A DNA stretch of 59,342 nt, counting the filler, from Bradymonadales bacterium (lineage in GTDB: Bacteria; Bdellovibrionota; UBA2394), in NCBI GenBank assembly GCA_007693605.1. It is 6 parts of 6 records of this genome, joined end to end, with 100 filler letters (N's around TTAATTAATTAA, not from the genome) between each part and the next. Parts side by side here need not be neighbours in the genome. Positions count along the whole stretch, not along the records: positions 38,042 to 53,303 come from REDG01000074.1; 5 more parts are not named here. One strand, 5' to 3'. Shown here piece by piece: positions 10,933 through 53,303 of this stretch. Every line of letters begins with the position of its first letter. Position 1 is the stretch's first letter. Under the pieces are notes generated by a model. It saw nothing but the letters and a program-made list of their open reading frames with translations. It was not told where the DNA came from and did no database searches. The position numbers and the translations under genes were made by a program.

Positions 10933-11007
10933 TGGCTCCCAGGGAGGGATTTGAACCCCCGACAGGGTGGTTAACAGCCACCTGCTCTACCCCTGAGCTA
11001 CCTGGGA
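10933..11007 (-). tRNA. tRNA-Asn (GTT)
   Basis: 75-nt cloverleaf TCCCAGG...CTGTTAA...CCTGGGAGCCA. Confidence 0.97.
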
Positions 11008-11140
11008 ATGATGTTTACCAACTTGCTCCTACACTACTGAAGCTCAGGGGTAGAGCAAACTGGTTTTTTTTCTGCGCCTTTGGGGCGCAAGCCCTGAGCC
11101 GAAGTCTGAATATGCCGAATGCCCCTTAGCCTGCCAAGAA

Positions 11141-36994: not shown

Positions 36995-37174
36995 GCTGCG
37001 ATTTGCCAGAAACACCAGATTCTGAATTCGTCCCTTCGGCCCTGCCACTAAAAAAGATCAGGGGTTTCAGTCCCCGTGCTCTTTTGATTTGTGGGTCGGG
37101 GATTTGAGTTTCTCGATGCATTTGGGTGACAGGCAGGGGGTCCAAGGCCGATGCCATGCCGAGTGAGATTCGCC

Positions 37175-37759
37175 TTATGTCCCCGTGGCTACAATCGTTG
37201 GCAAATGTTGACTCAAAAAGACAAACAGAAATAAAACAAATAGTCCGACTAGAATCAAAATTTGTTTCATTTTGCTTGATGTGGAAACTTGAAAATATTC
37301 CCGAACATTTTTTCGAAAAACATAAACCAAAATGAACATGCCCCAGAGGGAAAGGCTAAAGCCATACAAGATCTGCTTGGTCAATGTTCCGGGATCCAGC
37401 TGATCCGTCAGGGCCATGGCAGCTAATGTTACAATGAGCCCCTTAGAGGTGGAATAAACGGAATAGGTTCCCAAAGCCCACCAGCCATAGCGCGCTCCTC
37501 GCAAACCTCCTATAGCGATACCCACAAATATCGTGAAAAGCGGAAAAGCCATAGAAGCTGCGAGTCCGGAGGCTTCCGCGCCATGGGTGAGGCCGACAGA
37601 CACGACGGAGCCTGTTAAGATGAGGGCTGAAATGCCGGCCAAGGCGATCATCGCTGAAATGAGAAAAGGTCTTTTCTTCTTCTCATTTCCATTGGGAAGT
37701 TGAGTTGTTTTGGGCATGATTGGAGTCCAGGTGATGTTGGTAAAATTATCATTTTTCAT
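37175..37759 (-). CDS. Multi-pass membrane protein
   Basis: About five hydrophobic segments. Confidence 0.7.
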   Translation of the reverse strand: MKNDNFTNITWTPIMPKTTQLPNGNEKKKRPFLISAMIALAGISALILTGSVVSVGLTHGAEASGLAASMAFPLFTIFVGIAIGGLRGARYGWWALGTYSVYSTSKGLIVTLAAMALTDQLDPGTLTKQILYGFSLSLWGMFILVYVFRKNVREYFQVSTSSKMKQILILVGLFVLFLFVFLSQHLPTIVATGT

Positions 37760-37772
37760 CAGAGATTAGGTC

Positions 37773-37789
37773 TGCAAGTTGTGTGCCAA
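37773..37789 (-). promoter_or_regulatory. Sigma54 promoter
   Basis: TTGGCACACAACTTGCA, near-perfect consensus. Confidence 0.8.
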
Positions 37790-37941
37790 TCGGTTCCGGT
37801 GGAACAAAGGGATTTTTGGGGGCGGCTTGTGGGGAAGAACCTACAGTCCTTCAGTTGTTGTCGGTAATTGCCAACTCTTTGCCTATTCTAGCGCAGGGAG
37901 ACATAACTGACAGAGGAGGCGTGGAAGTTTTGATTGTGAGA

Positions 37942-38041
37942 NNNNNNNNNNNNNNNNNNNNNNNNNNNNNNNNNNNNNNNNNNNNTTAATTAATTAANNN
38001 NNNNNNNNNNNNNNNNNNNNNNNNNNNNNNNNNNNNNNNNN
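37942..38041. other. Artificial contig linker
   Basis: N44-TTAATTAATTAA-N44. Confidence 0.99.
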
Positions 38042-38199
38042 TCTTCACTTCGTGTGCCTCTGGCACAACAGCTGAGCTACGGTCGCATCCTTAAAACCTA
38101 CTTCAACACTTCCATCGCTCAGCTGGATAGAGCTTGCGCTCTCCTCTTCACTTCGTGTGCCTCTGGCACAACAGCTGAGCTACGGTCGCATCCTTAAAA
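38042..38199 (-). repeat. 103-bp-period repeat carrying tRNA-Arg-like 5' fragments and an inverted D-arm
   Basis: 55-bp repeat at 38042 and 38145 contains GCGACCGTAGCTCAGCTG (minus); GCTCAGCTGGATAGAGC on plus at 38117-38133. Confidence 0.8.
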
Positions 38200-38272
38200 A
38201 CAAAACTCCCTTCGCTATATTGACCCAAAAGAAATCCGGCAAGAGCTTTTCTTGAATCCTTTGTTAAGGCTT

Positions 38273-39442
38273 CTAAGAATTATCAGGGGCCTGATAGCTG
38301 CTTCCCGCAAGCTCCAAGCCGTGCGCCCGATTCTCCCTTAAACAATTCGGACTGATCTCAACAAAATGTGCCTTCTCATCGAGTTCCTCAATCGTGTGAC
38401 AATTCAGATAACTCATGCCGCTCCGGACTCCTCCGGCCAGCTCATTCACGATCTCTGAAACCGGACCCTTGCAGTTCACCCACTGACTTTCGCCCTCAGG
38501 GGCCATCCCTTCCGGCAAACTTCCTCCTCGCCAAGAGGTCTGAGCCGCCTTGGAGGCCATGCCTCGATAAGCTTTCTTTCCACGAACCAAAGCGCCGGGG
38601 GTTTCAATACATCCCGCCAACAATGAGCCCAACATGATCGAAGAAGCCCCCACGACCAGGGCCTTCATCGCGTCTCCGCTGCTTCGTATCCCACCGTCCG
38701 CAATCACCGGCACAGCTTCTCGCCTCGCAATCTCACAGCAACTCGCAATGGCCGTTAACTGCGGCACACCGACCCCAGTAATCAATCGAGTGGTGCACAT
38801 GCTGCCTGGGCCAATTCCTACCTTGATCGCGTCGGCTCCCGCTCGAATCAGATCTTCAGCAGCCCAGGTGGTGGCCACATTGCCTGCCACGAGATCCACT
38901 TCAGGATATTCTTTCTTTAAGTGCTGAAGCATTCGAATCATGGCTTCGCTATGACCATGAGCAATGTCGATCGTTAGCACCTGCACTCCCGCCTCAACCA
39001 AAAGTCGCGCCGACATCTTAGACTCTTCGGTCACCCCAATCGAAGCGGCAACCATCCCTCGTTTGTTTCGATCAACTTCATCTCGAAACTCTTTCACTTG
39101 CGCCACCTGCTGCTCAAGCGGCATGAAGCGGTGCAAAATGGCCGTGGCCCGCAAACGATTCATGGCTCGCAACATCTCCAGCTCTGAAATGGTGTCCATA
39201 TTGGCCGCAACAAAGGGCAGCTCCAGATCAAACCGGCGGCTAAACTTGGTCTTCAAACTCACATCGAATCGGCTCCCCACCTCAGAGCGAGTGGGCAGCA
39301 ACAAAACATCATCAAAGGTATAGGCTCTACTCCGTAACCCCATCTCGCGAGCTGGAAAGATATAGTCTTGATAAAATTTATCTTTAAACTCTCGGGGGTT
39401 CATCTTCTTCGAATGGGAAGACTCTACTGCCATCTCTAACAC
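38273..39442 (-). CDS. IMP dehydrogenase/GMP reductase family protein without CBS domain
   Basis: TFDDVLLLP, ANMDT, DIAHGHS, KVGIGPGSMCTTR, ADGGI, YRGMAS, PEG. Confidence 0.9.
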   Translation of the reverse strand: MLEMAVESSHSKKMNPREFKDKFYQDYIFPAREMGLRSRAYTFDDVLLLPTRSEVGSRFDVSLKTKFSRRFDLELPFVAANMDTISELEMLRAMNRLRATAILHRFMPLEQQVAQVKEFRDEVDRNKRGMVAASIGVTEESKMSARLLVEAGVQVLTIDIAHGHSEAMIRMLQHLKKEYPEVDLVAGNVATTWAAEDLIRAGADAIKVGIGPGSMCTTRLITGVGVPQLTAIASCCEIARREAVPVIADGGIRSSGDAMKALVVGASSIMLGSLLAGCIETPGALVRGKKAYRGMASKAAQTSWRGGSLPEGMAPEGESQWVNCKGPVSEIVNELAGGVRSGMSYLNCHTIEELDEKAHFVEISPNCLRENRAHGLELAGSSYQAPDNS

Positions 39443-39449
39443 TCCTCTA

Positions 39450-39713
39450 TTACTGAAAGATTCTCTTTAAGCGCTGAAGCCAACCAGAGCGCTCTGGCCG
39501 CTGACGGAGCAAGGCCGAAGACTGCAAAAAGAAACACAAACTTTCGATTCTTCTCTGATCTTGCTCAGACACTTTGTAGTTCTGATAAATCTCAAAGAGC
39601 TGCTTACCCAGAACTTGGTAAACTCCAGGCTCCAGTACTGGCATCTCTGTCGATTTTAACTCGAAATGCCCCTCTTCAAGATGAACTCGTTCCATCAACT
39701 TCTCTACGATCAT
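39450..39713 (-). CDS. Hypothetical protein
   Basis: Coupled ORF within the operon. Confidence 0.6.
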   Translation of the reverse strand: MIVEKLMERVHLEEGHFELKSTEMPVLEPGVYQVLGKQLFEIYQNYKVSEQDQRRIESLCFFLQSSALLRQRPERSGWLQRLKRIFQ

Positions 39714-40120
39714 CAGACTCGCTGCTCCTCTACTTTTGAAGAAAAATCTCTCTTTAAATGCTCCGGCAACTCAAGGGCCTCAAACTCTGAACGAATTCGG
39801 TCGAAAGCAAAGATGCTCCGATGTCGATCTCCCCAAGTCACCGCCATCCCGTAGTTACCAACCGCCTCAATTTTTTGAATTCGCAAACGAACTCCAAGAG
39901 CTTCTGCAGACAGTTGGCTCAAGTTCTGGGCAGGAGACCGCTCTAGACAAAGAGCGCAGGCACAAGCCTCTCGCAACCATCGTAGAGGAAAGGAGTGAGA
40001 GCTTGAGTCTGACCACACTAGATCGAGAAAGCCCTCACGGTAGGAAATTTTTTTTGCTTTTAGACTCTGTGTTAGGCTTTGCATACTTGGCGAACCCCAG
40101 CTTTGCTGAAAACTGCCCAA
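39713..40120 (-). CDS. DUF971 / GBBH-like N-terminal domain protein
   Basis: WSD.....F...WLR..C.CA.C, VGNYG....W.D.H. Confidence 0.85.
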   Translation of the reverse strand: MGSFQQSWGSPSMQSLTQSLKAKKISYREGFLDLVWSDSSSHSFPLRWLREACACALCLERSPAQNLSQLSAEALGVRLRIQKIEAVGNYGMAVTWGDRHRSIFAFDRIRSEFEALELPEHLKRDFSSKVEEQRV

Positions 40121-40141
40121 CAGAACATCAAGACCTAGGAC

Positions 40142-41131
40142 CTAATGCTCGATCAAGCTCATTCGAACCTCGCCACTACTAGCAGAATTGATCGCATCTT
40201 CCAATCGAACCTGATCATCCGGCACACCCTTCCCGATCAGATAGGCTCGCACGGCCTCAAAACGACCCCTGACAATGGAGTCTGCCTCAGAAGGGGCACG
40301 AGTCCCCTCTAAAATGAGAGTGTTGCTAGGGTTGTTTAAGAGAAAAACGCTCATTTGGTCGAGTCGATCCATCACGCGAGGACTGAGCCCCAACTGCCCT
40401 TCGTCAAAGCTCAAACTTCCGTTGGGCACCGGACTGCGGCCTTTCTCTGCTTCAGGCGCAGTGGATGCCGCTCTGGGGGCGGGATCTTCGGCCATTTCGT
40501 CGAGGCTCGGAGGGGATTCTTCGTCTTGAGCGACTTCATCTGCAGGCTCCCTCCTCTGAGACCGAGCTTCAGAGCCAGACTGAAGAACAATCGCTCCCTC
40601 TGGCACCGGGATGTCGGGCTGAGGAGCTCGAGCAGGCACCTCAGGCTCAGGCTCAGGCTCAGGCTCTTCGGCTTCTGAAAACTCTCTCTTACGGGCAAGA
40701 TAGCTGGCCAGCGCCTGGGCGGGCAGCTCCATTTGAGAGGGGTCGGGCCGAGCTTCAATCTCAACGACCGGGCTAGGCTCGACCTTTTTGGTCACTTCGA
40801 CCGCCTTCTCTTCATCGGCCCCCTCCACTTGAACTGGGCTCTCTGGCTCCATTCTCCACTCTCGATCCTCCTCGAGAATGTCTTCGGCCCAGCGCTCCAC
40901 CTGCCTCAATCGCCTATCGGCTTGAGAGTAGCGACCCGCCTGCAGCGCCTCGAAACCCGCCTCTAGAGCGAGCCGAGCGGGTTCAATTCTGGGGTGCACC
41001 GGATCTACCTTTTCAGCGGCCTCCAGAAGCGCCCTCGATCGCTCATACTGCCGAAAGCTGTCTTGGGCCGCACAGGCCGGCAAAAGCAGGAACAAGAGAA
41101 GCCAAAGAAATTTTGAGCTTGAGGACTGCAT
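40142..41131 (-). CDS. Lipoprotein with Pro/Glu-rich linker and degenerate OmpA-like domain
   Basis: LPAC lipobox; F..G...LS....LD, ILEG, R..AVR.YL...GV. Confidence 0.7.
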   Translation of the reverse strand: MQSSSSKFLWLLLFLLLPACAAQDSFRQYERSRALLEAAEKVDPVHPRIEPARLALEAGFEALQAGRYSQADRRLRQVERWAEDILEEDREWRMEPESPVQVEGADEEKAVEVTKKVEPSPVVEIEARPDPSQMELPAQALASYLARKREFSEAEEPEPEPEPEVPARAPQPDIPVPEGAIVLQSGSEARSQRREPADEVAQDEESPPSLDEMAEDPAPRAASTAPEAEKGRSPVPNGSLSFDEGQLGLSPRVMDRLDQMSVFLLNNPSNTLILEGTRAPSEADSIVRGRFEAVRAYLIGKGVPDDQVRLEDAINSASSGEVRMSLIEH

Positions 41132-41178
41132 AGGCATCTGGAAATAGGATATAAGCAAGTGCGAAGAGAGGGCAAGCT

Positions 41179-41919
41179 ATGGTGATCGCTCAAAGCCAAC
41201 AAAGAGAAAAACTGAGCACAATGGGGGAACTTGCCACGGTTCTCGCCCACGAAATTAAAAACCCCATGAACTCCATTATCATTCACTTGGAGGTTTTGAA
41301 ATCCTGTGTTCAAGAACTGAGGGGACACGAACCCACCCGCCAAAAGGCTAAGAGAAAGCTTGAAGTGATTGAGGGCGAAATCCGTCGGCTCGAAAAGGTG
41401 ATCTCGGGCTTTCTCGATTTAGCGACCCCTTGCTCGAGCGAAACCACACCACTTCAAATCAATTCTTTAGTGGAGGAACTGACGGAGCTTTTGGGGCCAG
41501 AGTTTAAAAAGAAAAAAATCCAACTAAGACGAGAGCTTCAAGCTGACCTTCCAGACATTACGGGACGATCGGATCAACTCAAGCAGGCCATCTTGAACCT
41601 GATGATCAATGCTTCTCAGGCCCTGCCAAAGGGCGGCGTGATTGAAGTGTCTACGGGCTCAGACGAAAAACTTCTGTGGGTTCAGGTGAAAGATGATGGC
41701 TCGGGAATTCCCGCAAACATCAAAGATCAGATTTTTAGCCCCTACTTCACGACCAAAGAAAAAGGAAGCGGCCTGGGCTTGGCCATTGTGAGACGAATCA
41801 TTAGAGAGCATGGAGGCTATATCGAGGTCTCGAGCGAAGAAGGCCAAGGGGCGACATTCAGAGTGACTCTACCAAGAACAGAAGTCGTCTTAGCGAGCGG
41901 CCATGGAGAAATTCGATGA
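41179..41919 (+). CDS. Histidine kinase (HisKA + HATPase only)
   Basis: LAHEIKNP, NLMINA, D.G.GI, F.P.FTTK, GSGLGL. Confidence 0.93.
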   Translation: MVIAQSQQREKLSTMGELATVLAHEIKNPMNSIIIHLEVLKSCVQELRGHEPTRQKAKRKLEVIEGEIRRLEKVISGFLDLATPCSSETTPLQINSLVEELTELLGPEFKKKKIQLRRELQADLPDITGRSDQLKQAILNLMINASQALPKGGVIEVSTGSDEKLLWVQVKDDGSGIPANIKDQIFSPYFTTKEKGSGLGLAIVRRIIREHGGYIEVSSEEGQGATFRVTLPRTEVVLASGHGEIR

Positions 41920-43325
41920 GCACATTAGAGTTAGTTAATCCTGATGTTGGGCTCGGAAAAGAAAGCCCCAAGATTAGAGTTTTAGTGGTGGATGACGAGG
42001 CCAATGCTCGCGAAGGCCTACATGATTTGCTCGAGACTTGGGGCTACGAGGTTTTGACGGCTCAAGATGTCAGAACCGGATTTGACGCAGTGAAGAAGTT
42101 CCAGCCCGCCGTCATCATCACAGACCTGAAAATGCCGGAAAATGACGGCATGACTTTAATTCACCTTCTGAGAGACGAGCAACTCATGGAACACACCCAT
42201 GTCATCGTTCTTTCCGCTCACGGCAATATTGAGAAAGCTGTCGAAGCCATCAAGCTTGGGGTGGAAGAGTTTCTGACAAAACCCGTAGATGTCTCTCGAT
42301 TAAAAATCCTTCTAGAGAGAATCGAGAATCGAAATCGCGTTTACGAAGAAATGCTTCTGCTACGAGACAAGGTGAGAAAGCTGGGCACATTCGGCAAGCT
42401 CAACGGCTCCACCCCTAAAATGAAGGCCGTCTTTAAACAGATTCAAGTGGTGGCCCCGGCCTCTTCGCCGGTGTTGATTACGGGCGAAAGCGGAACGGGC
42501 AAAGAATTGGTCGCCAAGGCGATTCATCAGAACTCAAAACGAAAGGACAAAGCCTTCTTGCCGGTGAACTGTGCGGCAATACCCGCCTCTCTTTTAGAGA
42601 GTGAGCTCTTCGGTCACGAGAAGGGGGCTTTTACTGGCGCCGTCGGTCAGAAGCTTGGATGTTTTGAACTCGCGAATCACGGCAGCCTTTTTTTGGATGA
42701 GATTGGAGAGATGAGCCCTGATTTGCAGTCGAAGCTTTTGCGAGTTTTGGAGGATGGCAGTTTTCGTCGTTTGGGAGGCAAAACGGAGATCAAAGTCGAT
42801 GTTCGAGTGATTGCGGCCACCAACCGAAATCTTGAAGAAGCGGTCGAAGAAGACGGATTTCGAGAGGATCTTTTCTATCGACTCAATGTCTTTCAAATTG
42901 AACTGCCCCCCCTGAGGGAGCGCTCCGAAGATATCCCCCTTTTGATTCAAACCTTTATTGAAGAGTTTAATTTGAAAAACGATCGCCAGGTGAAGGGCCT
43001 GTCGCGAGAAGCTCTCAAGACTTTGAAGCGCTATAGCTTTCCGGGCAATGTCAGAGAGCTGAAAAATGTGATTGAGAGGGCGGTGATTGTCAGCCAGAAC
43101 GATGTGATCGAGCCTGAAGATTTACCAGAGAACTTGACTAAGAAGGCTCAAAGAGCTCCGAGCGTCGAGTTCAACCTTGGAATGTCGATGGAAGAGATTG
43201 AAAAGGAGTGGCTGTTTCACACCATCAATTTCGTCAACGGCAACAAGACCAAGGCCGCCAAAATGCTGAATATCAGCCTCAAGACCCTCCACAACCGACT
43301 AAACAAATACAAATCGAGTGTTTAG
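41916..43325 (+). CDS. Sigma54-dependent response regulator (NtrC/AtoC family)
   Basis: REC (VVDDE, DLKMP), GESGTGKE, GAFTGA, FREDLFYRL, Fis-type HTH. Confidence 0.96.
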   Translation: MSTLELVNPDVGLGKESPKIRVLVVDDEANAREGLHDLLETWGYEVLTAQDVRTGFDAVKKFQPAVIITDLKMPENDGMTLIHLLRDEQLMEHTHVIVLSAHGNIEKAVEAIKLGVEEFLTKPVDVSRLKILLERIENRNRVYEEMLLLRDKVRKLGTFGKLNGSTPKMKAVFKQIQVVAPASSPVLITGESGTGKELVAKAIHQNSKRKDKAFLPVNCAAIPASLLESELFGHEKGAFTGAVGQKLGCFELANHGSLFLDEIGEMSPDLQSKLLRVLEDGSFRRLGGKTEIKVDVRVIAATNRNLEEAVEEDGFREDLFYRLNVFQIELPPLRERSEDIPLLIQTFIEEFNLKNDRQVKGLSREALKTLKRYSFPGNVRELKNVIERAVIVSQNDVIEPEDLPENLTKKAQRAPSVEFNLGMSMEEIEKEWLFHTINFVNGNKTKAAKMLNISLKTLHNRLNKYKSSV

Positions 43326-43368
43326 TGCCCGCAAGTGAGCCTCTCGCTCAGTTTGAGCATGAGCGGCG

Positions 43369-43398
43369 CAGATGGGCCGTTAGCGCCAGCGCCCCCCC
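43369..43398 (-). repeat. Partial TIR of the MITE/REP-like family
   Basis: TGGCGCTAACGGCCCATCTG on minus strand. Confidence 0.55.
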
Positions 43399-43478
43399 CT
43401 AAATGCAGGAAAGGCCCCATACAAGGGGCCCTTCTAGTTCGTTCTCTTAAGTCGAGAACTCTTCAATGAAGCATGGGT

Positions 43479-43652
43479 TTAGATGTCTGCAGCTTTTACA
43501 GTCTTACGACCGTTTTGCTTGGTTCTTTCGGCGGCTACTTTGATCAAGCGACCCACTTCTTTGTTCAACTGATCAACGGCATCACTTCCTGTGTTGCAGC
43601 CATGCTGTTTGAACAATTCTCGAACCTTTGATTGAACGACTAAGTTTTCCAT
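43479..43652 (-). CDS. Bacterial histone-fold protein (Bd0055-like), 57 aa, not in the ORF track
   Basis: MENLVVQSKVRELFKQHGCNTGSDAVDQLNKEVGRLIKVAAERTKQNGRKTVKAADI; RKTV...D histone motif; AGGAG RBS. Confidence 0.9.
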   Translation of the reverse strand: MENLVVQSKVRELFKQHGCNTGSDAVDQLNKEVGRLIKVAAERTKQNGRKTVKAADI

Positions 43653-43961
43653 ATTTCCATCTCCTATCTAAAAATCGCGCAGAGCGCTTCTAAGTTGTAA
43701 ATTCGGTAACTCGGAGAGATGATCCTGTCAATGAAAGTGGGTGCTGTCAAACTTCTGGATATCTCATCTGGATCAGAATGTAGGATTTACTCAGAGCATA
43801 TAAGGCATAACTAATTGAAATTATTGTATTTATTTTAATTTCCTGACTTTGTCTTAAAAGCTGAATGTAAAATTTACCCTAATTTCAATCTGAAAGCCTG
43901 ACCCCCTCCAGCCAAAAGGCCCTAAAGCATTGAAATTATTTACTATATTTCAATTTTGAAA

Positions 43962-43979
43962 CTTGGCATGAATTTTGCT
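43962..43979 (+). promoter_or_regulatory. Sigma54 promoter with upstream enhancer-like repeats
   Basis: CTTGGCATGAATTTTGCT; GAATGTARRATTTAC at 43776 and 43863; AT-rich IHF-like tract between. Confidence 0.8.
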
Positions 43980-43989
43980 ATTGTCAGGA

Positions 43990-44100
43990 TATAAGTTCTC
44001 TGGGGCGGCCATTACCCTGAAACCCTTTATCCCCTACCCTAAGCCGCCTCGGGAAGTTTCAAAGTCTCCTCTAGTGAACGCTAGAGGAGGCTTTCTTTTT
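43990..44100 (+). ncRNA. Candidate sigma54-dependent sRNA
   Basis: No ORF; GGGGCGGC/GCCGCCTC stem with CCCT-repeat loop; ends in a terminator. Confidence 0.7.
44064..44100 (+). terminator. Intrinsic terminator
   Basis: GTCTCCTCTAG-TGAACG-CTAGAGGAGGC followed by TTTCTTTTT. Confidence 0.85.
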
Positions 44101-44129
44101 GGGGGCAGCATGGAGTAGCTCTGTTTTTA

Positions 44130-44882
44130 GTGGCTGTTTCTACCCCTCATGCAATCGAAGCAAAGAAAAAGGCTCGAAAGTTTCCGGACACGCTCCCAGA
44201 CGGCTGGCGAGAGGTTCTCAGGGCAGAGGCTGAGAAGAGCTATTTTAAGTCTCTGACAAAGTTTCTAAGAGAGGAGCTGCGTTCGGGCCATGAGATCTAC
44301 CCGACAAGCGCTCAAATCTTGAGGGCCCTTCAAAGCCTAGACCTAAACGAGGTCAAGCTTTGCATTCTCGGCCAAGACCCCTATCACCAGCCCGGCCAAG
44401 CCATGGGCTTGAGCTTTGCCGTTCCAAATCAGCTTCAGCCAAAACCCCCCTCATTGGTAAACATCTTCAAAGAAATTGAAAGCTCCCTCGGCTGGAAGTG
44501 GGACCGAGAGTCTTCAGAACTCCTAGGTTGGGTAGAGCAAGGGGTGCTCCTATTGAACACGGTATTGAGCGTCCGAAGGGGTCAGGCCTTCTCTCACCGA
44601 AACAAGGGTTGGGAGCCCTTCACCGATCAAGTGATTCGAAGTTTAGGCGCCCGAGAGAAGCCTGTGGTCTTCCTTTTGTGGGGGGCGGCCGCTCAATCGA
44701 AGGCGGCTCTGATTCAGAAGCATCACTTTGTTTTGAAGTCGGCGCACCCGTCACCGTTGTCGGCTCATCGCGGATTTTTTGGCTGTGGACATTTTTTAGC
44801 AGCCAACCAACAGCTCAAAGCCTGGAATGAAGAACCCATCGATTGGACAAGAATCAATGCCGGAACAAAAGCCCTACTTTGA
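44130..44882 (+). CDS. ung: Uracil-DNA glycosylase family 1
   Basis: ILGQDPYH, PPSL.NI, GVLLLN, HPSPLS. Confidence 0.96.
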   Translation: MAVSTPHAIEAKKKARKFPDTLPDGWREVLRAEAEKSYFKSLTKFLREELRSGHEIYPTSAQILRALQSLDLNEVKLCILGQDPYHQPGQAMGLSFAVPNQLQPKPPSLVNIFKEIESSLGWKWDRESSELLGWVEQGVLLLNTVLSVRRGQAFSHRNKGWEPFTDQVIRSLGAREKPVVFLLWGAAAQSKAALIQKHHFVLKSAHPSPLSAHRGFFGCGHFLAANQQLKAWNEEPIDWTRINAGTKALL

Positions 44883-45306
44883 TCGATGTTTGGAGCTGGC
44901 AGCTCAGGCATTCTCTCTGGGCGAGGTCCCCATTGGAGCTGTTCTTGTAAAAGATCAGAAGGTAATCGCAGAGGGCTACAATCAGACAGAGACACAAGGC
45001 TGCTTTACTGCCCATGCCGAGATTTTGATCATTCAACAGGCCACTCAAACTCTGAAAACGAAATATCTGAATGGATGTGAGCTTTTTGTCAACCTAGAGC
45101 CCTGCCCGATGTGCCGAGCCGCACTTCAACTCTCTCGCGTGAATCGAGTCCATTTTCTACTTCCTTCAGAGAAGTTCGGAGAAAAGGGAGCCGCCCTTCA
45201 TGCAATCGAAATAGAACCCGCGCACACCGAAGCATTTAGTGAAGAGCGAGAAAAGTCTAAACAACTACTTGCAGATTTTTTCGAGATGAAAAGAAGGCGA
45301 TCCTGA
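44857..45306 (+). CDS. tadA: tRNA adenosine deaminase-like nucleoside deaminase
   Basis: GEVPIGAV, HAE, LEPCPMC, FF..KR C-terminus. Confidence 0.8.
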   Translation: MPEQKPYFDRCLELAAQAFSLGEVPIGAVLVKDQKVIAEGYNQTETQGCFTAHAEILIIQQATQTLKTKYLNGCELFVNLEPCPMCRAALQLSRVNRVHFLLPSEKFGEKGAALHAIEIEPAHTEAFSEEREKSKQLLADFFEMKRRRS

Positions 45307-45374
45307 AAAACTCATTCGAACACTCTGCCAGAGATACTGCACTGAGGAGTCAACACGCTTCTTACGGGAAGGCA

Positions 45375-45507
45375 GCCAAACTCTGGATTCGGGAGTGTCC
45401 CTAAAGGCCCATCTGCCCCCTCATTCAGGTCGACCTCCGGTCGACGCCGTTTGCGGATGGCTGCAACGCTCCTTGCCCGCGTTGCAGTGGCGGCTGCGTC
45501 GCTGCGC
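45375..45507 (+). repeat. Truncated copy of the MITE/REP-like element
   Basis: GGCCCATCTGCCCC..GGTCGACCTCCGGTCGAC..GGATGGCTGCAAC..GCTGCGTCGCTGCGC. Confidence 0.8.
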
Positions 45508-46932
45508 TTACCAACCAAATGCACCGAAAAAAGTCTCAGAAGGATCATCCATGCAGAAGCTTGCAATTGCGCTATGCACCGGTTCCGGATCTTCTTGCCA
45601 AGCCACCAGAACGGGGTCTGCTTCAATCACCCGTAGACCTGAAGAATAGGAGACGGGCGCGAAAGCCCTTAAATGATGTCGATCTTCTGGATGAGAGACG
45701 AACTCCCAAAGAGTCGATTTGACGGGATTTCCAGGAAAATTCATCGCTCTCAACGACTCCACTCCTCCTTGAGAATCTCTAAGAACCTCGAATCGATAAA
45801 TCATGGGAAGATTGAAATCTAGCACAAGAACCCCTGAAACTTGATCGGCCCCTTCCTTTTTCTCTGTCTCATAGCCAATCACAAGAACCATATGACCCAA
45901 TTTACTACCAGATTCTGAGCGACGCCAAAAATTTAGATAGGCCAGAGTTCCAGAATCCACTGATCGTTTCACCGAAGACAAGAAGCGATCGAGTTTCTCT
46001 GAGGAGTCGTTCGGACGAATCGCTGGCGCCTTAGAAAGGAATGATCCCAAAAGACTCTGCCCACGGACTCTTCTTTGCTGCTCATGCTGTTCTCGTTGTC
46101 GCTCATCGATCAATGCCAGTATCGGATTCGACTGCAAGTTGGGCAAGCTCGAAATAGTAACGCCTGCTGAACTTACAAGCTTCGAGCCTTCCGCCGTCGA
46201 CCCAATCTGCTCTGTCACAAAAGATGCTTGAAAGAGTCCGTCTAAAAATTCCAAGAAGTCAGATAGATCATCAAAGCCATGAATCTCAACTCGCTCGTAT
46301 CTCAACGCTCTTCTTAGTTTCTCGGCGATCGCCTGATGGGATTCTCTCTCAAGATCTCCCCTAAAACTCACAGCTGAAACAATCGCCTCCTTTAGACAAA
46401 CGATGCCAACACATATTCCTCTTGGATTCTCAAGGCTTCCAATATTAGTGATGAGGGGCTCACTCAAGGAAAAGGGCAAGCTCAATTGCCTGAACTCCCT
46501 ACCCGGCTCTATTCGAGCCACATCGCCAGTCGATCGAGCTCGGGCATAACGGCTTAAGTTCTCAACTGCATCTCTGACGGAACTCCCTGGCGTCAATCGA
46601 TCGAGCTGAGCTTCAAGCTTCTCAACGGCGGGCATCAGCCAATACGAGAGGTCGTGGCCAAAGACAAGGCCAGAAAGAAAGTTAAAACTGATGGCAAAGG
46701 TTGCTGGGTCTTCGAAGCCAGAAGAAATCAGCTCGAGTTCTTGGAGCAGTCTGGCTTCGAGATCCGTAGGCGATGGTCGTTCTCTCTCAAGCTTCACAAA
46801 GGCTTGATAGGCTTCGCGAGCTTGGGAGTAATAGTCCTGCCCACTAGTTGCGCCTACAATCGAGTTGAAAGCAAAAATTACCAAAGAAGCCGCCAGAAGC
46901 TGGCAGTGAGCTTTTAGGCAAAAACGAAGCAT
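45508..46932 (-). CDS. Secreted protein with papain-like cysteine peptidase motifs
   Basis: Signal peptide; GICVG, GHMVLVIGY, VLDFN; sigma54-like site at 46948-46963. Confidence 0.55.
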   Translation of the reverse strand: MLRFCLKAHCQLLAASLVIFAFNSIVGATSGQDYYSQAREAYQAFVKLERERPSPTDLEARLLQELELISSGFEDPATFAISFNFLSGLVFGHDLSYWLMPAVEKLEAQLDRLTPGSSVRDAVENLSRYARARSTGDVARIEPGREFRQLSLPFSLSEPLITNIGSLENPRGICVGIVCLKEAIVSAVSFRGDLERESHQAIAEKLRRALRYERVEIHGFDDLSDFLEFLDGLFQASFVTEQIGSTAEGSKLVSSAGVTISSLPNLQSNPILALIDERQREQHEQQRRVRGQSLLGSFLSKAPAIRPNDSSEKLDRFLSSVKRSVDSGTLAYLNFWRRSESGSKLGHMVLVIGYETEKKEGADQVSGVLVLDFNLPMIYRFEVLRDSQGGVESLRAMNFPGNPVKSTLWEFVSHPEDRHHLRAFAPVSYSSGLRVIEADPVLVAWQEDPEPVHSAIASFCMDDPSETFFGAFGW

Positions 46933-47167
46933 TCAGCTCTGCTGAGTTGCAAATTTGATGCCGCCCAAAATAGCCGCTGAGGCGCTTACTTGAAGCTCAA
47001 CTGCAAACTTTGCAGGCCCGATGAAGGCCTCCCATTCGGGCATCGTGACTCTAGCTGACGGGCCTCTAGCGATTCGTGAGGAATCTTCCTATAGAAAGTT
47101 AGGTGATAGAAGAGCTTTCTTGTACTTCTGGGTCGACTAGCGAGGGGGATCAAGTTAGCTTCCGCGA

Positions 47168-47611
47168 ATGTTGTTTCTTGGCATCATTGGCTCAGGCCTG
47201 ATCGCAACAACGGCGATGACTCTCTTTCTGGCCCTCGTTCATCGAAATCATTTGGCCAATGGCGATATGGCGAGAGCACTGGGCAGCCTGATCACAAAAA
47301 AAGAAGAGGGCAGTCTGGGCTTGGGCCTAGTGATTCACTATGCGGCCGGTTGCTTCTTCGCCGTTCTGTACCACAGCTTGGTGAAGTTTGCGCCTGTGGA
47401 TGCAGGCCCCTATTCCGTGATCTTTATCTGTTTGGCTGCAGGCTTCTTCCACGGGCTTGTGATGAGCATGTTCTTAAGCATTCTGGTCGCAGAACATCAT
47501 CCCTTAGAAAGATTTCGAAAAGCAGGACCGGATGTCGTGATTGCGCACCTGGCAGCCCACCTTGTCTACGGCTTGACTCTGGGAACGAGCTTTTACTTTC
47601 TTATCGGCTAA
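47168..47611 (+). CDS. Four-TM membrane protein with His-bearing helices
   Basis: AT.AMT, G.VIHY..G, HG, HLVYG. Confidence 0.75.
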   Translation: MLFLGIIGSGLIATTAMTLFLALVHRNHLANGDMARALGSLITKKEEGSLGLGLVIHYAAGCFFAVLYHSLVKFAPVDAGPYSVIFICLAAGFFHGLVMSMFLSILVAEHHPLERFRKAGPDVVIAHLAAHLVYGLTLGTSFYFLIG

Positions 47612-47632
47612 GAGAGCCCTGCCCGATTTCGA

Positions 47633-48379
47633 CTAGAGAAAATATTGGGAGGAATCTAACTCCAGAAGGGACCTCATCAGATATTCAAATTTTGTCTCAT
47701 CGATTCCCAGCTCCGCCGCCATAGCTCGCCTGATATGGTAGTGATAGAATTGCTCTCCAAATTGTCGTGTTAGCGAATTGTAAAAATGAAGTAATTGATC
47801 AACTTCATCCCGTTCTAGTTTTCCAGCAAGTTTTTCACCTACCTTTTGAGGGGCTCTGGCGCGGCCAAGTATGCCGTCGAGATCCACCGAGTCTGCCACC
47901 TCTCGAATTGAGAACTCGAGAACGATGAAAATGTTGTCCCCAAGTTTCCAGTTTTTCGCTTCCACAAATTTTCCAACTGCTTCTCTTGTGGCCTCTTCTA
48001 ACCGCCTCCTACGATTATGCTCCTTTGTCCACAGATGAGACTTGCCGATCGCGGACAAAAAGCCCTCAAATGTCGGCCGGCCCCCACCGAGAATTGCAGC
48101 AACAATGCCCTCTGACCTGAAAAACCTTGGATCTTACGCCAGCGCATGAAGAAAGGCATATATATCCGGTGTGATCGTTTCCCCGTGCAAAAGCTTGCGG
48201 AAAACGGGGGCGGTCTCTTCGCCGTAAGTCCTTTCAAGCTCCTTCGCAAGCCTCAAAACCACCATACGACAATGTGACCTAGCCTCTAAGCTATCTGTTA
48301 AACTTAAACCCAAACCGCCAAGAAGAAGGCCAAGAGTCAGTCTCATCACTTTCTTATGAAATTTATGAAGTCTAATCAT
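47633..48379 (-). pseudogene. Secreted protein gene split by one in-frame TAA (48134-48136)
   Basis: ORFs 48134..48466 and 47633..48058 share a frame, and the interval between them is open. Confidence 0.65.
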
Positions 48380-48645
48380 ACGCAGCACCTGCTTTTGGTG
48401 AAGCAAGACTCGTACCTTCAAAAACCTAAGTAAATTCAACAGATCTGGGGGGCTGGCTTGCCCCATCGCTGCCTCAGTCTGCCCCCTGGAGGCCCCCGTT
48501 TCCGGGTCTCATTTCTTGGGGGGCTTGATTTCTGGGCGAGCTGTGTTAAAGGCAGCGAACTGCTTTCGGTCCAACTTTCCGATGGGATGAGTTAGATCGA
48601 GCGCCTTCATTAAATTTAACGAACAAGAAGTGAGGAATTGAAATC

Positions 48646-49782
48646 ATGACGGGAATTAAAAATATTTTTGCTCTTTCAGCAGCCTTTGTTCTTCTGGGGC
48701 CATCCCCTTCTACCGCCCTTGAAGTAAAGAGGTCCAAACAAGAGTTTGACCACTTTCGAGATATTGAACAGGCACCGAGGGATACTCAAGTTGACCCCTA
48801 TGACGCACGATTGACCCGTGCGATTAATGCCCTACGACAGTTTAGAGACGCCAACAGAGCAAATCATAGAACTCAAGCAACAGCGGGGCCAAACCTACCA
48901 AAAATTGTTCTTGATATTGAAAGAATTCTACTGAATTTCCAGAGCGGCTCCAACATTTACTTCATACAGGAGAATCTCCACCGAATAGAGATCTTGAGCG
49001 GGGCGGTCTTGATTCTAAATGAAACTCTTCACAACTTTGTGAAAGACACCGTCAATCACGGCTTTGAACTCAGTGACAAATTGGTAGAGTATGAAAAGGA
49101 AAACTCTGGCTCTAGAAGAGTCTCAAGAAGTCGTCTTCAAGAGATCAATACCGATCTGAGGGCCTCTGCAAAGCCGCTACTAGAGTCTGCAGATAAAATC
49201 AAAGCGGCGATTCAGGATGATCTTTTCCCCTTTATCACAGACTCAAGGGCCTACTGGGATGCTAAGTATCAGGTCGAAGGGGCCGAAAGCATTCTTGAGT
49301 TCATTGATGCCGTTGATGAGATTCGAACAGATATTTACCTAGCGTTCGAGTTTATCGACCCGGCCGTTGCCTTCAAAGAGCTCGAGCCCACTTCAGAGGA
49401 AAAACAGAACTGGCTTGGTCAAGTGAGAATTGAAGAGACTTATTCAGACATCCAGAGTCAGATCGCCGCCTACAGAAGGGTGGAGCTGGCCTGGCAGTTC
49501 ACCGTTGAAACTTTAGCAGATTCACTAGCGAAGCTTAGAGGCTCTAGTGCGAATCTGGGAAGCGCCTTGCTATATGATAATGATGCCCACCAAGCTCTAG
49601 AATCAATTCGAATGGCCTTTGTTCAGTCAGTAAAGGAGAACCCTCAAGACTCTGTAGTTCAAGTCGATACAATCGTCAGAAGAGTCGAAAATGCTGAAAG
49701 GGCACTTGTCGGAATCAGAAATCGGCATCGAGATCAGCAACAGAGGCTCCAACGGACTGAGACAGAAGTTAGCCAGCGCTAA
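48646..49782 (+). CDS. Secreted helical hypothetical protein
   Basis: Signal peptide; GAGGA RBS. Confidence 0.75.
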   Translation: MTGIKNIFALSAAFVLLGPSPSTALEVKRSKQEFDHFRDIEQAPRDTQVDPYDARLTRAINALRQFRDANRANHRTQATAGPNLPKIVLDIERILLNFQSGSNIYFIQENLHRIEILSGAVLILNETLHNFVKDTVNHGFELSDKLVEYEKENSGSRRVSRSRLQEINTDLRASAKPLLESADKIKAAIQDDLFPFITDSRAYWDAKYQVEGAESILEFIDAVDEIRTDIYLAFEFIDPAVAFKELEPTSEEKQNWLGQVRIEETYSDIQSQIAAYRRVELAWQFTVETLADSLAKLRGSSANLGSALLYDNDAHQALESIRMAFVQSVKENPQDSVVQVDTIVRRVENAERALVGIRNRHRDQQQRLQRTETEVSQR

Positions 49783-49820
49783 GCGGCTAACTTCTAGTCG
49801 CAGCTTTTGGGAGGGCGATC

Positions 49821-50795
49821 GTGACTGACAGGGCTCCATCTTTAGTTGAATTCCCAAAGAAGCGAGAGCTTCTTTGGGTTTTTACTGCCCTCTTTGTTTT
49901 GATTTCCTTTGTGAAAGACCTTGCTGCTGTTGAATACGACGATCTCTGGGTCGTTGAGCTAGAAGCTGAGCTAGGAGACTCCCCCGAAGAAGTCTTATTG
50001 AAAGAACTAGAAGATCTGATTGAAGAAGCGGATATCACCCGTCAGTCAAAGTCTGACTATAAAAACTCGGGGCATTATCAACTGGCATTGATTTCTATTC
50101 GAGACAGAATTCTAAAGAACTTTGTCGACCTTTCTCTCACTCAGGTCATTGAGCCAGAGCTTGATTTTGACGAAGACGATGACATCATTGAAGCAGCGAT
50201 ATTTCTGCGATCACTGTTAGATACATTTGACTGCTTTCTGCCCCTTCCTGACTCTCAAGATTACGCTAAAGCTTATCAACACTCCTTCGAGAGCATTGAA
50301 CTCTGTCTGTCTCAGGCTCTTACCGCGGCTCGTAGCAGATTCCGAAGCTTTCAGATAGCTGCTGAAAGCACCCATCAGCCAGATCGAGACGAAGCTGTAA
50401 GATATACAAGTTTAAGAAACGCCATCGACAGCCAGTTCGATCGACTTACAGCATATGGCATCTTTCTTCCTGCTCTAAATGCTGAGAGTTTCCTACATCA
50501 ATCTCGAACCGACGAACAGATTCGATTCTTTCTGGAGAAACCCATTCTGCAAAGCATTCAAGACATTCTATTAAGACTAGATAGATCCTCTTACTCGCCA
50601 ATAGAGGAAGATTCTCGATTCTGGACTTATCTAAATCCCGTCTTTGAAGAGCTTCGTCAACTGGCCCTCTGGGGAAGCCCTGGTCGGAACACAAAAGAAA
50701 TTGAAAGGCAACTCGATCAACTCCTCTTAAAATCCGATAGATTTGTGCGAGATGCAAAAGAAAGAGCCGCAGCTCGTTCTCGAGACGGCCTTTAG
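49821..50795 (+). CDS. Secreted or membrane-anchored hypothetical protein
   Basis: N-terminal hydrophobic segment; GGAGG RBS. Confidence 0.7.
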   Translation: MTDRAPSLVEFPKKRELLWVFTALFVLISFVKDLAAVEYDDLWVVELEAELGDSPEEVLLKELEDLIEEADITRQSKSDYKNSGHYQLALISIRDRILKNFVDLSLTQVIEPELDFDEDDDIIEAAIFLRSLLDTFDCFLPLPDSQDYAKAYQHSFESIELCLSQALTAARSRFRSFQIAAESTHQPDRDEAVRYTSLRNAIDSQFDRLTAYGIFLPALNAESFLHQSRTDEQIRFFLEKPILQSIQDILLRLDRSSYSPIEEDSRFWTYLNPVFEELRQLALWGSPGRNTKEIERQLDQLLLKSDRFVRDAKERAAARSRDGL

Positions 50796-50805
50796 CAAGA
50801 GTTCC

Positions 50806-52932
50806 CTAGAGATTGCAGTTGGCCACTGGGCTCACGAAAAGCTCTCGAAGACTTCGATCCATATTTTTCCTTGCTCTCTGAGCCTCATGAGGTCTCCACT
50901 TTTGTCCGCTCTGTAGACGAAGACTCTCACGGTATTCTTGCGCTGAACGCCGAAGATGAGACACATCATAAAGCCCTTCCGCTTGAGCAAACTCCCTCAG
51001 CATCCGAATCACACCCTCAGAAGAGACGCCTGAGTTCCTGGGGTTAAATGTAAAGTGAAGCCTCCCATTCTTAGTCTGCACAGAGAAAAAATACCCCTCT
51101 TCTTCAAATTTTCTTGCCCAAAATCGCTGCAGTTCTTCAAGTTTTTGATTTGAGAGCTGCGTCTCTAGTTCTTGTAAGCTCCAGTCCGATCGACTCGCCC
51201 ACCAGCTGGAATCAAGCTCTGACAAGAGTTCGAGATCCAAGACGGGACCTCGAAGCTCTAAGACAAGATCAAAAGATCTTGAAGGAAGCGGACGAATCGG
51301 AGACTGAACCCAATAGTCAAACTCCAATTCTTGGGGGTGAACCAGTCTCAAGGGAAGGGGCAGAATTTCTCGAATCTCTTCCATTTTCAACGGAATCGGT
51401 TGTCCTCCGAGAGTGGACTTTCGTAGTCGATCTCTCGGCTCCATCGTCTTCAATTCTTCAAGAAGTCGTTGCCGATCAACCAGGCCATTTCTTTGCGTGA
51501 AGTCTCGGATATGTGCTCTGATCTGATCTTCGGTCACCCCCCCTGAAAACTCGACAACAAAAGAATACTCATGCCGTTTCGTGAGCCGTTCTAAAAAACT
51601 GCCACGACGACGAGATCGGACTCCATCTGGCCCTAAAGGCTTGAAGAGCTCTTCAAGAGCTTCCTGGTCGGCCTCAAGCCTTCCGGCCTCAGCGATACTA
51701 TTGAGCTCGAACCAAGCCTTAGTGGTCAGGTCCAGCAGCATCGCTTGGGGCATCTCTTGTAGAAGTTCCAGATCGAGAAGAGATGCCGGGCGCTCTATTC
51801 GCAGCTCGATCCTTCCCCCCCGCCCTCGATGAATCTCATAACGCCAATCAAAAACCTGGGGGGAGACGAGCCGAAAGGGAATCGGAAGCTTCTTTAGATT
51901 CGAAAGACTTGGGTCCTCCTGAAAATTTAATTGATTCGCCTGCCGTTCTTGGATTTGCCTTTCTATGTCAGGCGCAGGACTCTCGACTTGAGAGCCCGAA
52001 GAATCCGAGCCGCCTTGAATATATCGATCTCTAGCCAAGCGCTCTCGTCTTTCCCACTCTTTTCTTAGCAGCCTTTCGGACTGAGTTTCCTTTTCTAGAG
52101 TCCAGCTCCTCGCGACTTCTGAACGCTGTTGATCGACAGGGCTCTCGACATTCGGAAGCGCCAAAGCCCCAAAGGCTTTCACAATGTCAGAGATTTCATC
52201 CATTGAAGGAATGGATGCCATGTCTATACTGAAATTCTGTCCTCCGCGGCTTTCTCGATAGAGAGGAGCGCCCCAGCGAAAGCTCTCAAAATCCCGAAGT
52301 CTCTCGCCCCAGTCTTGAGACAACCTCTGATCCACCAATCCTGGACCCGCCTCGGCGCCCACTTGAATCACAAGTGGCCGAGATTTCCCCCTTAGGAAGC
52401 CTCGGCTAAATCCCTGAAACTCAGAACGAGAACTGTCTAGAAAAGTTTCGAAGTTGTCTGGATCTCCGATGAAAACAAAAGAAAAATTTCGATCCCCACC
52501 CAATAGATGCCATGGCCTATCTTCGTCTTTGTTGTCTCGAGTGCGAATAAGGTTTTCTAGGCTCATCTTGAAGCTTCTGTTATTGGGTCGCCGATCGAGA
52601 AATCCCGACCAGAACGAATCAAGATCCGGACGAAGTTCGTCCAAACGGACCGTCCCCCTTGCCACATACCTCGGAGATCTTCCCATTAAGACATAGGACA
52701 CCGCCTGAGTGTGGCGCCCTTCCATCTCGAGCAGAAGCTGTGCGATTAGCTCATTGGCAATAGGCCGATCTGCCGGACTCAAATCTTCGTCCACAAAAAA
52801 CAGCATGGTGCTCGGCCACTGCGGCTGCCAGCTGCTCTGAGCCTCCGCCCCCAAGAGCGATAGCACCCCGCCCCCAAGCAAACTGAATGCTGAAAACCCA
52901 AAAAAGCCAAAAACAAGTCCAAAACCACGCAT
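50806..52932 (-). CDS. Secreted hypothetical protein with duplicated C-terminal domain
   Basis: Signal peptide; LP.P.RLV.PQ...LDLELL.E motif twice; sigma54-like site at 52951-52966. Confidence 0.7.
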   Translation of the reverse strand: MRGFGLVFGFFGFSAFSLLGGGVLSLLGAEAQSSWQPQWPSTMLFFVDEDLSPADRPIANELIAQLLLEMEGRHTQAVSYVLMGRSPRYVARGTVRLDELRPDLDSFWSGFLDRRPNNRSFKMSLENLIRTRDNKDEDRPWHLLGGDRNFSFVFIGDPDNFETFLDSSRSEFQGFSRGFLRGKSRPLVIQVGAEAGPGLVDQRLSQDWGERLRDFESFRWGAPLYRESRGGQNFSIDMASIPSMDEISDIVKAFGALALPNVESPVDQQRSEVARSWTLEKETQSERLLRKEWERRERLARDRYIQGGSDSSGSQVESPAPDIERQIQERQANQLNFQEDPSLSNLKKLPIPFRLVSPQVFDWRYEIHRGRGGRIELRIERPASLLDLELLQEMPQAMLLDLTTKAWFELNSIAEAGRLEADQEALEELFKPLGPDGVRSRRRGSFLERLTKRHEYSFVVEFSGGVTEDQIRAHIRDFTQRNGLVDRQRLLEELKTMEPRDRLRKSTLGGQPIPLKMEEIREILPLPLRLVHPQELEFDYWVQSPIRPLPSRSFDLVLELRGPVLDLELLSELDSSWWASRSDWSLQELETQLSNQKLEELQRFWARKFEEEGYFFSVQTKNGRLHFTFNPRNSGVSSEGVIRMLREFAQAEGLYDVSHLRRSAQEYRESLRLQSGQKWRPHEAQRARKNMDRSLRELFVSPVANCNL

Positions 52933-53078
52933 TGCTATCTGTCATCAAGCTGCAAGCTCTATGCCCTCGGCAGTCTTGGAATTTCAACTACTTATAGTCG
53001 AAGCTCCTGCTCAGATTGCGACATCAAGGCAGCACTCCAATCTGAACAGAAGGTGAATGCCTACTTTAAGGCTCTGTC

Positions 53079-53303
53079 GCCAAACTCTGGCTTCGGGAAT
53101 GTCGACAAGGATCCAGATACGAGAAGGCAAGGAGCGAGCATCGCAGTGTGGTCCAAATGCCACTCGAGAAGCGCAGCGACGCAGCCGCCACTGCAACGCG
53201 GGAAAGGAGCGTTGCAGCCATCCTCAAATCATGTCGACCGAAGGTCGACCAGAGTGTAGGGGCAGATGGGCCTTTAGCGATTCATGGGGAGTGGCGATAA
53301 GGG
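53079..53303 (-). repeat. Full copy of the MITE/REP-like element with tandem junction at the contig end
   Basis: Reverse complement of the 34006 family; same CCCCATGAA junction. Confidence 0.85.

Follow-up and report, generated by a model that had tools for sequence, protein, structure and literature searches.

A gene-less fold-back module with a tRNA-matched antisense arm beside tRNA genes of a Bradymonadales bacterium and its relatives

The DNA analysed here (the window; 59,342 nt) consists of six contigs with artificial spacers between them, and positions 38042-53303 are contig C49 of the source genome, G000. The 12-base AT palindrome flanked by N's at 37942-38041, like those in the four other runs of N's, is an artificial contig joint and has no biological meaning. 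The minus strand of C49 carries, downstream of an IMP dehydrogenase/GMP reductase family gene, one whole 103-base unit and the initial part of a second unit, which is cut by the contig end (Table 1). The units contain no genes. Each unit is ordered as tRNA nt 1-18, T, a 6-bp stem with a 3-base loop, C, a purine-rich linker, a copy of the 3' strand of the D-stem, a short loop, the complement of tRNA nt 26 to 10, and a spacer; GT-[6-bp stem]-C is referred to as the core of the module. The two units are identical across all 55 comparable bases, including 10 leader nt. An earlier note on this DNA had described tandem 5' tRNA fragments with a hairpin and an antisense D-arm, at a period of 103 and cut by the contig end, and all of these features are present on the minus strand. 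Exact antisense matches of at least 12 nt to the D region of tRNA-Arg(TCG) occurred in 3 of 3000 random 400-nt windows of the genome. The note had also stated that the fragment lacks bases covered by the antisense segment. It is correct that the intact D-arm is the better partner at equilibrium. Of the eight bases that the note took to be missing, however, five find a partner in cis: a 5-nt copy of tRNA nt 21/22-25 at the end of the linker pairs with the antisense arm within the unit.

Table 1. Positions of the tRNA-Arg(TCG) array and associated features in the window
Feature	Position	Strand	Basis
IMP dehydrogenase/GMP reductase family gene, upstream; locus anchor in relatives	38273..39442	-	family matches below curated cut-offs
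tRNA leader, 10 nt; repeated where the in-unit spacer ends (38087-38096)	38190..38199	-	sequence identity
Unit 1, whole (period 103)	38087..38189	-	
Unit 1 decoy 5' fragment: exact tRNA-Arg(TCG) nt 1-18, stops within the D-loop at G18	38172..38189	-	identical to G000:C15:1-18
Unit 1 core: bulged T, 6-bp stem, 3-nt loop with final A, closing C	38155..38171	-	two-sided changes in alignment
Unit 1 6-bp hairpin within the core	38156..38170	-	
Unit 1 linker, purine-rich	38143..38154	-	sequence; A-rich in family modules
Unit 1 5-nt D-stem 3'-strand copy and 4-nt loop; base-paired to the beginning of the antisense arm	38134..38142	-	helix 3, 100% of cells paired; folding
D-stem copy (tRNA nt 21/22-25) within the preceding feature	38138..38142	-	
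Unit 1 antisense arm: exact 17-nt complement of tRNA nt 10-26, spanning the break point	38117..38133	-	sequence; nt 15-25 best kept in family
Spacer, 30 nt, with leader copy at its end	38087..38116	-	sequence; run X1 piece links this spacer type to the intact tRNA
Unit 2, initial 45 nt (fragment, core, partial linker); contig end cuts the remainder	38042..38086	-	sequence; run X1 pieces
Unit 2 copy of tRNA nt 1-18	38069..38086	-	
Unit 2 6-bp hairpin	38053..38067	-	
Worn single module before tRNA-Asn (10933-11007)	11041..11108	-	model R1 match

The earlier note had predicted that an intact tRNA with the start of the fragment exists in the genome or near the contig end and is the full partner of the array. 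Such a gene, tRNA-Arg(TCG), indeed occupies the start of another contig (G000:C15:1-74), following the array, and its start is exactly that of the fragment. The suggested extension past the contig end was made with assembly-graph pieces of run X1, which join the unit spacer to the intact tRNA; one 42-base piece spans the unit spacer, tRNA nt 1-18 and then the intact gene. Run X1 is possibly the source sample and hence not independent of the assembly. By word depth, which is a rough measure, the unit-to-unit link (16.2) and the unit-to-tRNA link (16.3) are equal and the unit body (32.3) is doubled, the flank being at 12.5. Thus, the depths fit an array of two units followed by the tRNA-Arg(TCG) gene. 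The location of the array at a contig break, together with the possible identity of run X1 with the source sample, could point to an assembly artefact at a repeat-bounded contig end. We regard this as exceedingly improbable, since the assembly graph of run X1 has the identical unit and links, and homologous modules are internal to contigs in 12 other genomes. Run X1 also holds a piece from another organism, in which a similar upstream gene is followed by a single tRNA start 227 bases on; this is likely an empty site. In practice, such arrays split assemblies at tRNA genes (here C49/C15), and they may be mistaken for integration scars or pseudo-tRNAs.

In G000, modules precede the genes of tRNA-Arg (TCG, TCT and ACG), Ile, Phe, Pro, Ala, Asn and two tRNA-Leu, with 1-3 tandem copies each, consistent with the earlier proposal that the unit is amplifiable; the three copies at Arg(TCT) on contig C75 are read from the assembly alone. 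The tRNA-Asn leader, which had been cited as the mirrored example, is a worn member of the family, as model R1, which was not trained on it, scored it at 27.7 bits (E 3e-5). The scan of other tRNAs that had been suggested revealed at least 81 R1 matches, which involve about 20 tRNA types and 13 of the 14 family genomes; with 150 candidates scored per genome, this number is a lower bound. Sixty of the 67 matches outside G000 were examined, the remaining seven having been met earlier, most of them in the training set. Just upstream of a called tRNA gene and on the same strand were 46, and 7 ran into a contig end. The others were located behind an opposite-strand tRNA (3), represented an inverted second arm (1), or were weak and without a tRNA (3). 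A strict pattern detected 20 loci in GTDB contigs, of which 16 were modules by inspection and 4 were chance matches. Ten of the 16, with looser cores, belong to Saccharibacteria, Peregrinibacteria, Peribacteria and an alphaproteobacterial MAG, and nine of these ten reached E 5e-6 or better with R1. The remaining six carry the labels Bacteriovoracaceae or Deltaproteobacteria, and some of them duplicate loci already counted. A strict pattern gave two matches in metagenome contigs, one of them real, and none in viral contigs. A pattern with one base absent from Arg(TCT) gave no matches in 61 genomes, missing its own genome too, and is no valid negative. No module reads were present in about 6% of each run of two metatranscriptomes, which does not constitute a test.

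The presence of the module is patchy at one orthologous locus. The tRNA-Arg(TCG) gene is syntenic with the IMP dehydrogenase/GMP reductase family gene in 10 of 13 relatives. Among the 13, a module was found in 4 and a short fold-back in 1, and none was seen in 8, including a relative with a 100% identical tRNA-Arg(TCG). Several variants were observed on the way. A short fragment with an antisense fold-back and no core precedes tRNA-Arg(TCG) in G005 (L010) and is possibly a reduced module. The 110-nt module before a tRNA-Ile gene of G003 (L181; G003:C16:51018-51127) has an extra hairpin in the loop that precedes the antisense arm. Before a tRNA-Ile gene of G011 (L176:400-560; G011:C31), both arms carry a core, head to head and with differing stems, and on the other strand the antisense arm is itself interrupted at that same position of the D-loop. 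Contig C39 of G000 has an exact 13-nt antisense copy of the T-arm, not of the usual D-arm, about 90 nt upstream of tRNA-Glu(TTC). A worn antisense D-arm of tRNA-Thr is located in a tRNA operon, in the interval between tRNA-Tyr and tRNA-Thr (L035:250-270; G000:C53).

The antisense arm was compared with the cognate tRNA in 48 detected 5' modules, covering 20 tRNA types. Every position from nt 15 to 25 was complementary to the cognate tRNA in at least 42 modules, a complementarity that is inflated by detection through local match, and a few of the rows may be false. For the two bases that are unpaired in the unit's own fold, complementarity to the cognate tRNA was seen in 46 and 47 of the 48 modules, and the left copy matched the tRNA at these two positions in 4 of 48. 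The arm is therefore matched to each cognate tRNA across the family, as had been proposed in describing the unit as customised. When a 6-nt seed was fixed (24 modules), the adjoining unseeded positions across the break were complementary in 23-24 of 24, and tRNA nt 1-9 were complementary at chance level (52/216), which indicates that the part of the arm spanning the break is precisely the part that is conserved. The chance level at nt 1-9 also ruled out that the arm had formerly covered the acceptor stem. A wobble count for the folding strand gave 9 G-T versus 13 A-C in the arm.

Folded as DNA, the unit had a z of -3.2 against 200 shuffles and is predicted to form, alone, a three-way junction; both strands of the unit fold with equal energy. 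When the unit and the tRNA were joined in silico, the antisense arm was predicted to pair with the intact D-arm at a probability of 0.99-1.0 with both DNA and RNA parameters. In an alignment of 16 modules, one row of which (Pro) is misaligned, the proportion of paired cells is 93%, and 6-10 of the 16 modules have changes on both sides at the four outer pairs of the small stem. Since this covarying stem is not copied from the tRNA, the small stem is under selection on shape. Loop and flank counts in the family modules derive from matches chosen by models that encode those features. A hammerhead-type core was considered and rejected, as no core motifs were recognized by eye and there was no Rfam match; the curated Rfam families gave no matches at E up to 5 in window positions 37000-40000. 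The core similarity among other tRNAs of the same genome was 0.456 versus 0.393 permuted (p about 0.001), a value that is due to the linker and to G011 and could be an effect of base composition, and that for the same tRNA in other genera was 0.375 (p 0.8). The within-genome likeness fits movement between loci and may partly be compositional. Within G000, the cores differ strongly from tRNA to tRNA; thus, such movement would not have been recent in this genome.

The earlier note had regarded the unit as a 5' counterpart of the long 3' arrays of G000 (Gly, Ser-GCT, Cys, Arg-TCT). This was not sustained, as the antisense tRNA matches of these arrays are only 6-9 nt. The true 3' counterpart is a separate mirror module on the opposite strand. 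Behind tRNA genes, a fragment search with no structure model detected four modules in which the 5' design is reverse-complemented. On the non-transcribed strand, they consist of 18-20 tRNA-end bases with a break about five bases into the T-loop, GT, a stem, a linker, a copy, a loop and an inverted copy. At either end of the tRNA gene, the loop that the module opens is the first one encountered from that side. With a training set limited to 5' modules, R1 gave three further 3' opposite-strand matches. Model R2 gave ten new matches, of which seven adjoin a tRNA called on the opposite strand. A tRNA-Pro gene of G011 is flanked by modules on both sides. In five 3' modules from two genomes (Ser in G000; Trp, Pro and two Leu in G011), the core is present on the non-transcribed strand only, and the single-headed 3' modules of G011 share linker sequence with the 5' modules of that genome. 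Five other 3' modules have the head on both strands, and three more have a second hairpin that looks worn by eye. The two-headed core is placed at a palindromic T-loop hexamer, in either orientation to the tRNA (L008:770-839, L196, L203, L032, L200), and 22 nt of it are identical between two genera. When 401 genomes of the phylum were searched with the 3' mirror pattern, 47 matched, and by eye only two modules that were already known looked real; spread outside the family is thus not shown by this pattern. A second, longer 3' family is located at window positions 16748-17176 and, in G000, on C18, C53, C61 and C75 behind Ser, Trp, Cys and Arg. It has near-identical cores at different tRNAs and 23-32 nt of the tRNA end, is without an inverted tRNA copy, and is distinct from the 5' module.

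Because the core occurs on the non-transcribed strand behind tRNA genes, the presence of the same core on both strands and at both ends argues for an element acting at the DNA level more than for a part of the pre-tRNA or a purpose-built RNA leader. This polarity argument rests on the five single-headed 3' modules of two genomes; the two-headed modules are compatible with an RNA reading too. According to such a reading, the module would be an RNA leader switch maintained by the host, in which the arm pairs either with the decoy, so that the tRNA matures, or with the D-arm of the tRNA, so that maturation is blocked and the tRNA supply is tuned. It would accord with the prediction of two exclusive folds, the self-fold of the unit and the arm on the intact D-arm (probability about 1), with the large excess of transcribed-strand 5' modules over 3' ones, and with the one-sided changes in the 16-module alignment, which are G-U on the transcribed strand. 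We consider this explanation rather unlikely, as it does not account for the same polar core on the non-transcribed strand behind tRNA genes or for the patchy presence at one orthologous locus, and because identical tandem copies and spacers of 18-65 nt would be unexpected for a tuned switch.

The two ends and two strands could also be accounted for without a dedicated enzyme if the module were a by-product of template switching in replication: a nascent strand jumping at a D- or T-arm hairpin would produce the inverted and direct duplication, the core would merely provoke or stabilise the event, and slippage would add copies. Leader bases are duplicated along with the fragment (a mean of 6.1 of 12 matches), as would be expected from this process, and no enzyme was found in the gene searches. 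What it leaves unexplained is the core that does not derive from the tRNA, with its fixed flanks, fixed length, compensatory changes and constant loop position at about 20 tRNA types, as well as the cores common to different tRNAs and to 5' and 3' sites of one genome. It is thus improbable, in our estimation, that template switching produced the module.

We searched for an enzyme that accompanies the module. No gene family follows the modules across 77 loci, and the proteins shared by module loci at different tRNAs were only host two-component genes and frames over tRNAs. Y1 transposases were present in all six genomes tested, including the module-free G008, and the module core was absent beside 12 Y1 loci from six genomes. 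The only Y1 transposase match of G000 (L005:1330-2145; contig C78, behind tRNA-Gln) is located between inverted repeats of about 30 nt, which recur beside several tRNA genes (Gln, Glu, Leu) and are unrelated to the module. Tyrosine recombinases were found in five of five genomes tested; neither these nor the Y1 transposases track the module. Among 22 GIY-YIG matches in 14 family genomes (76-98% complete), the open frames were 217-640 aa, so that no small GIY-YIG gene was detected, and the module core was absent from their flanks. No serine resolvase domain was found in three module-rich genomes (G000, G011, G005), and neither circles nor strain-level pairs of empty and filled sites were seen. 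Our leading guess for the enzyme, though a wavering one, is the HUH/Y1 type; some other kind is conceivable, and a Xer/integron-type tyrosine recombinase is a doubtful candidate.

These searches also bear on the possibility that the modules are scars or non-autonomous derivatives of a tRNA-targeting integrative element, whose attP would carry the tRNA 5' end and an inverted copy of an internal site. A fragment followed by an intact gene, and tandem arrays, are typical of integrative elements, and both are found here. However, no integrase-bearing version adjoins the module in the 77 loci, and the three module-rich genomes have no resolvase domain. The T-loop fragment keeps about five of the seven loop bases, unlike the 7-bp overlap of tyrosine integrases, and a range of 20 tRNA types at both ends is rare for a single integrase. 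An origin of the modules as such scars is therefore hardly likely. The displaced tRNA fragments at attL/attR likewise consist of a tRNA end fragment, intervening DNA and a restored intact gene. The module has the same succession, but only about 85 bases separate fragment and gene, no integrase gene is located within or beside it, and it differs in the inverted target copy, the D-loop break and the about 20 tRNA types.

The closest known class is the tRNA-linked repeats (TLRs) of E. coli, of which the module looks like a minimal, two-ended variant. TLRs comprise 22 units that lack genes and contain 18-19 bases of a tRNA or rRNA 3' end, in one to five units per locus in tRNA/rRNA operons, and their function is without explanation (PMC8144298). 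The main text of that paper describes them only downstream of genes, with 3' ends, and does not contain the word 'inverted' (PMC8144298). We examined the non-transcribed strand of E. coli NC_000913.3 at two of the 10 TLR loci, the tyr and lys clusters (L217, L218). All four tyr units (tyrT/tyrV) have a 22-nt inverted T-arm copy with 3 mismatches, and one of five lysT-lysQ spacers has an exact 13-nt copy, giving 5 of 9 TLR units tested. TLRs and the module thus are alike in being gene-less tandem units beside tRNA genes (1-3 per locus for the module) and in the order of fragment, core, copy and inverted copy. They differ in that the module, upstream of the gene, copies the 5' 18 nt of the downstream tRNA plus the D-arm. 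The 3' mirror relatives do carry 18-20 nt of the tRNA 3' end as TLRs do, so that the module family uses both ends. The TLR core is larger, with several hairpins, and at these two loci it showed no homology to that of the module: R2 scored TLRs weakly, at best at 12.2 bits (E 0.008), and R1 gave scores only on tRNA bodies (about 10 bits).

Other single-stranded hairpin systems were compared with the module. Ssn nucleases and their NTS/SRM hairpins involve a strand-specific ssDNA hairpin, in which the C just after the palindrome and the bases just before it matter; the main text of the source does not mention tRNA (PMC11893778). In the module, the stem of the core is likewise preceded by a conserved GT and followed by a conserved C. 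In contrast, the SRM consensus has 9 matches in G000, none of them within 500 nt of a tRNA, and the small single-domain GIY-YIG gene of the Ssn type, which the motif usually flanks, was absent from the 14 genomes, in which the shortest frame was 217 aa. A further comparison class is REP/REPIN/BIME with RAYT (PMC3733652). These elements and IS200/IS605 resemble the module as non-autonomous ssDNA hairpins and in forming tandem clusters with flanking DNA. In the peel-and-paste transposition of IS200/IS605, the target is chosen by base-pairing to a guide borne by the element. The module differs from REP/REPIN in having no common GTAG or CGTC tag, copies only at tRNA genes, and a guide of 11-20 nt copied from the target. 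The GTAG of the tRNA itself was ruled out as a REP tag, as the Arg-TCT, Ala and Leu fragments have no GTAG. The module does not flank a Y1 gene as RAYT motifs do, the resident Y1 gene having its own unrelated inverted repeats, and it is not dispersed at high copy number: a strict core scan of G000 gave 14 matches, six in tRNA modules and eight at the shuffle level of 4-10. In integron attC and CTX-phage attP sites, a single strand folds into a duplex mimic with bulged bases, and crossover occurs by a G-T step; attC sites have R/L boxes that an IntI-type integrase recognises on one strand. By analogy, the module may resemble these sites in its folded single strand, bulged bases, tandem unit arrays and G-T step, whereas it has neither cargo genes nor a linked integron integrase and its arms are copied from each tRNA. 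The main text of a study of Geobacter multicopy sequences has no such module; a repeat that extends into a tRNA-Asn gene is mentioned in one legend (PMC2700814). No description of the module was found in the literature searched, which extended to neither subscription papers, the 1999 TLR survey, nor the supplements of bioRxiv preprints and of PMC2700814.

Our preferred explanation, to which we assign an even chance of being right, is that the module is a fold-back DNA structure of about 100 bases without genes, which likely spreads as a selfish ssDNA element and whose antisense arm is likely a guide pairing across the break point. It is preferred because of the anatomy, the patchy presence, the tandem copies, the arm matched to the cognate tRNA, the covarying core that is not derived from tRNA, and the core on the non-transcribed strand at 3' ends. 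Such an element might work as follows. The strand exposed in replication would fold as the three-way junction, and a strand-transfer enzyme acting in trans would bind the GT-stem-C core. It would cut the junction of fragment and core as well as the matching position of the intact tRNA to which the antisense arm is paired. The tRNA gene would remain intact after excision, and identical units, each including part of the leader, would be added in register by re-insertion at a paired tRNA. Retargeting would begin when the element inserts at a D- or T-arm that is near-cognate; the antisense arm would then be corrected by template switching on the neighbouring tRNA, a proposal based on quasi-palindrome repair. 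In the pre-tRNA, the decoy fragment and the stem copy may trap the antisense arm early and keep it harmless.

The module is a real, shape-maintained, patchy and two-ended structure. More tentatively, and with less than an even chance, it may represent an undescribed class of minimal, self-guided ssDNA mobile elements, consisting of a protein-binding core of about 30 bases and a reprogrammable antisense guide copied from the target. Elements of this class would enter any tRNA gene at either end and on either strand and amplify in register. They would have a working principle in common with the E. coli TLRs, unexplained since 1978, and strand transfer would be performed by a DNA-guided enzyme whose guide is 11-20 bases long. 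For the TLRs, a testable structural rule follows, namely an inverted T-arm copy on the non-transcribed strand, as found in 5 of the 9 units tested. If the explanation is true, tRNA genes are home to an element without genes that finds new targets by rewriting its base-pairing guide. This would imply a programmable single-strand recombination or cutting activity not previously recognised.
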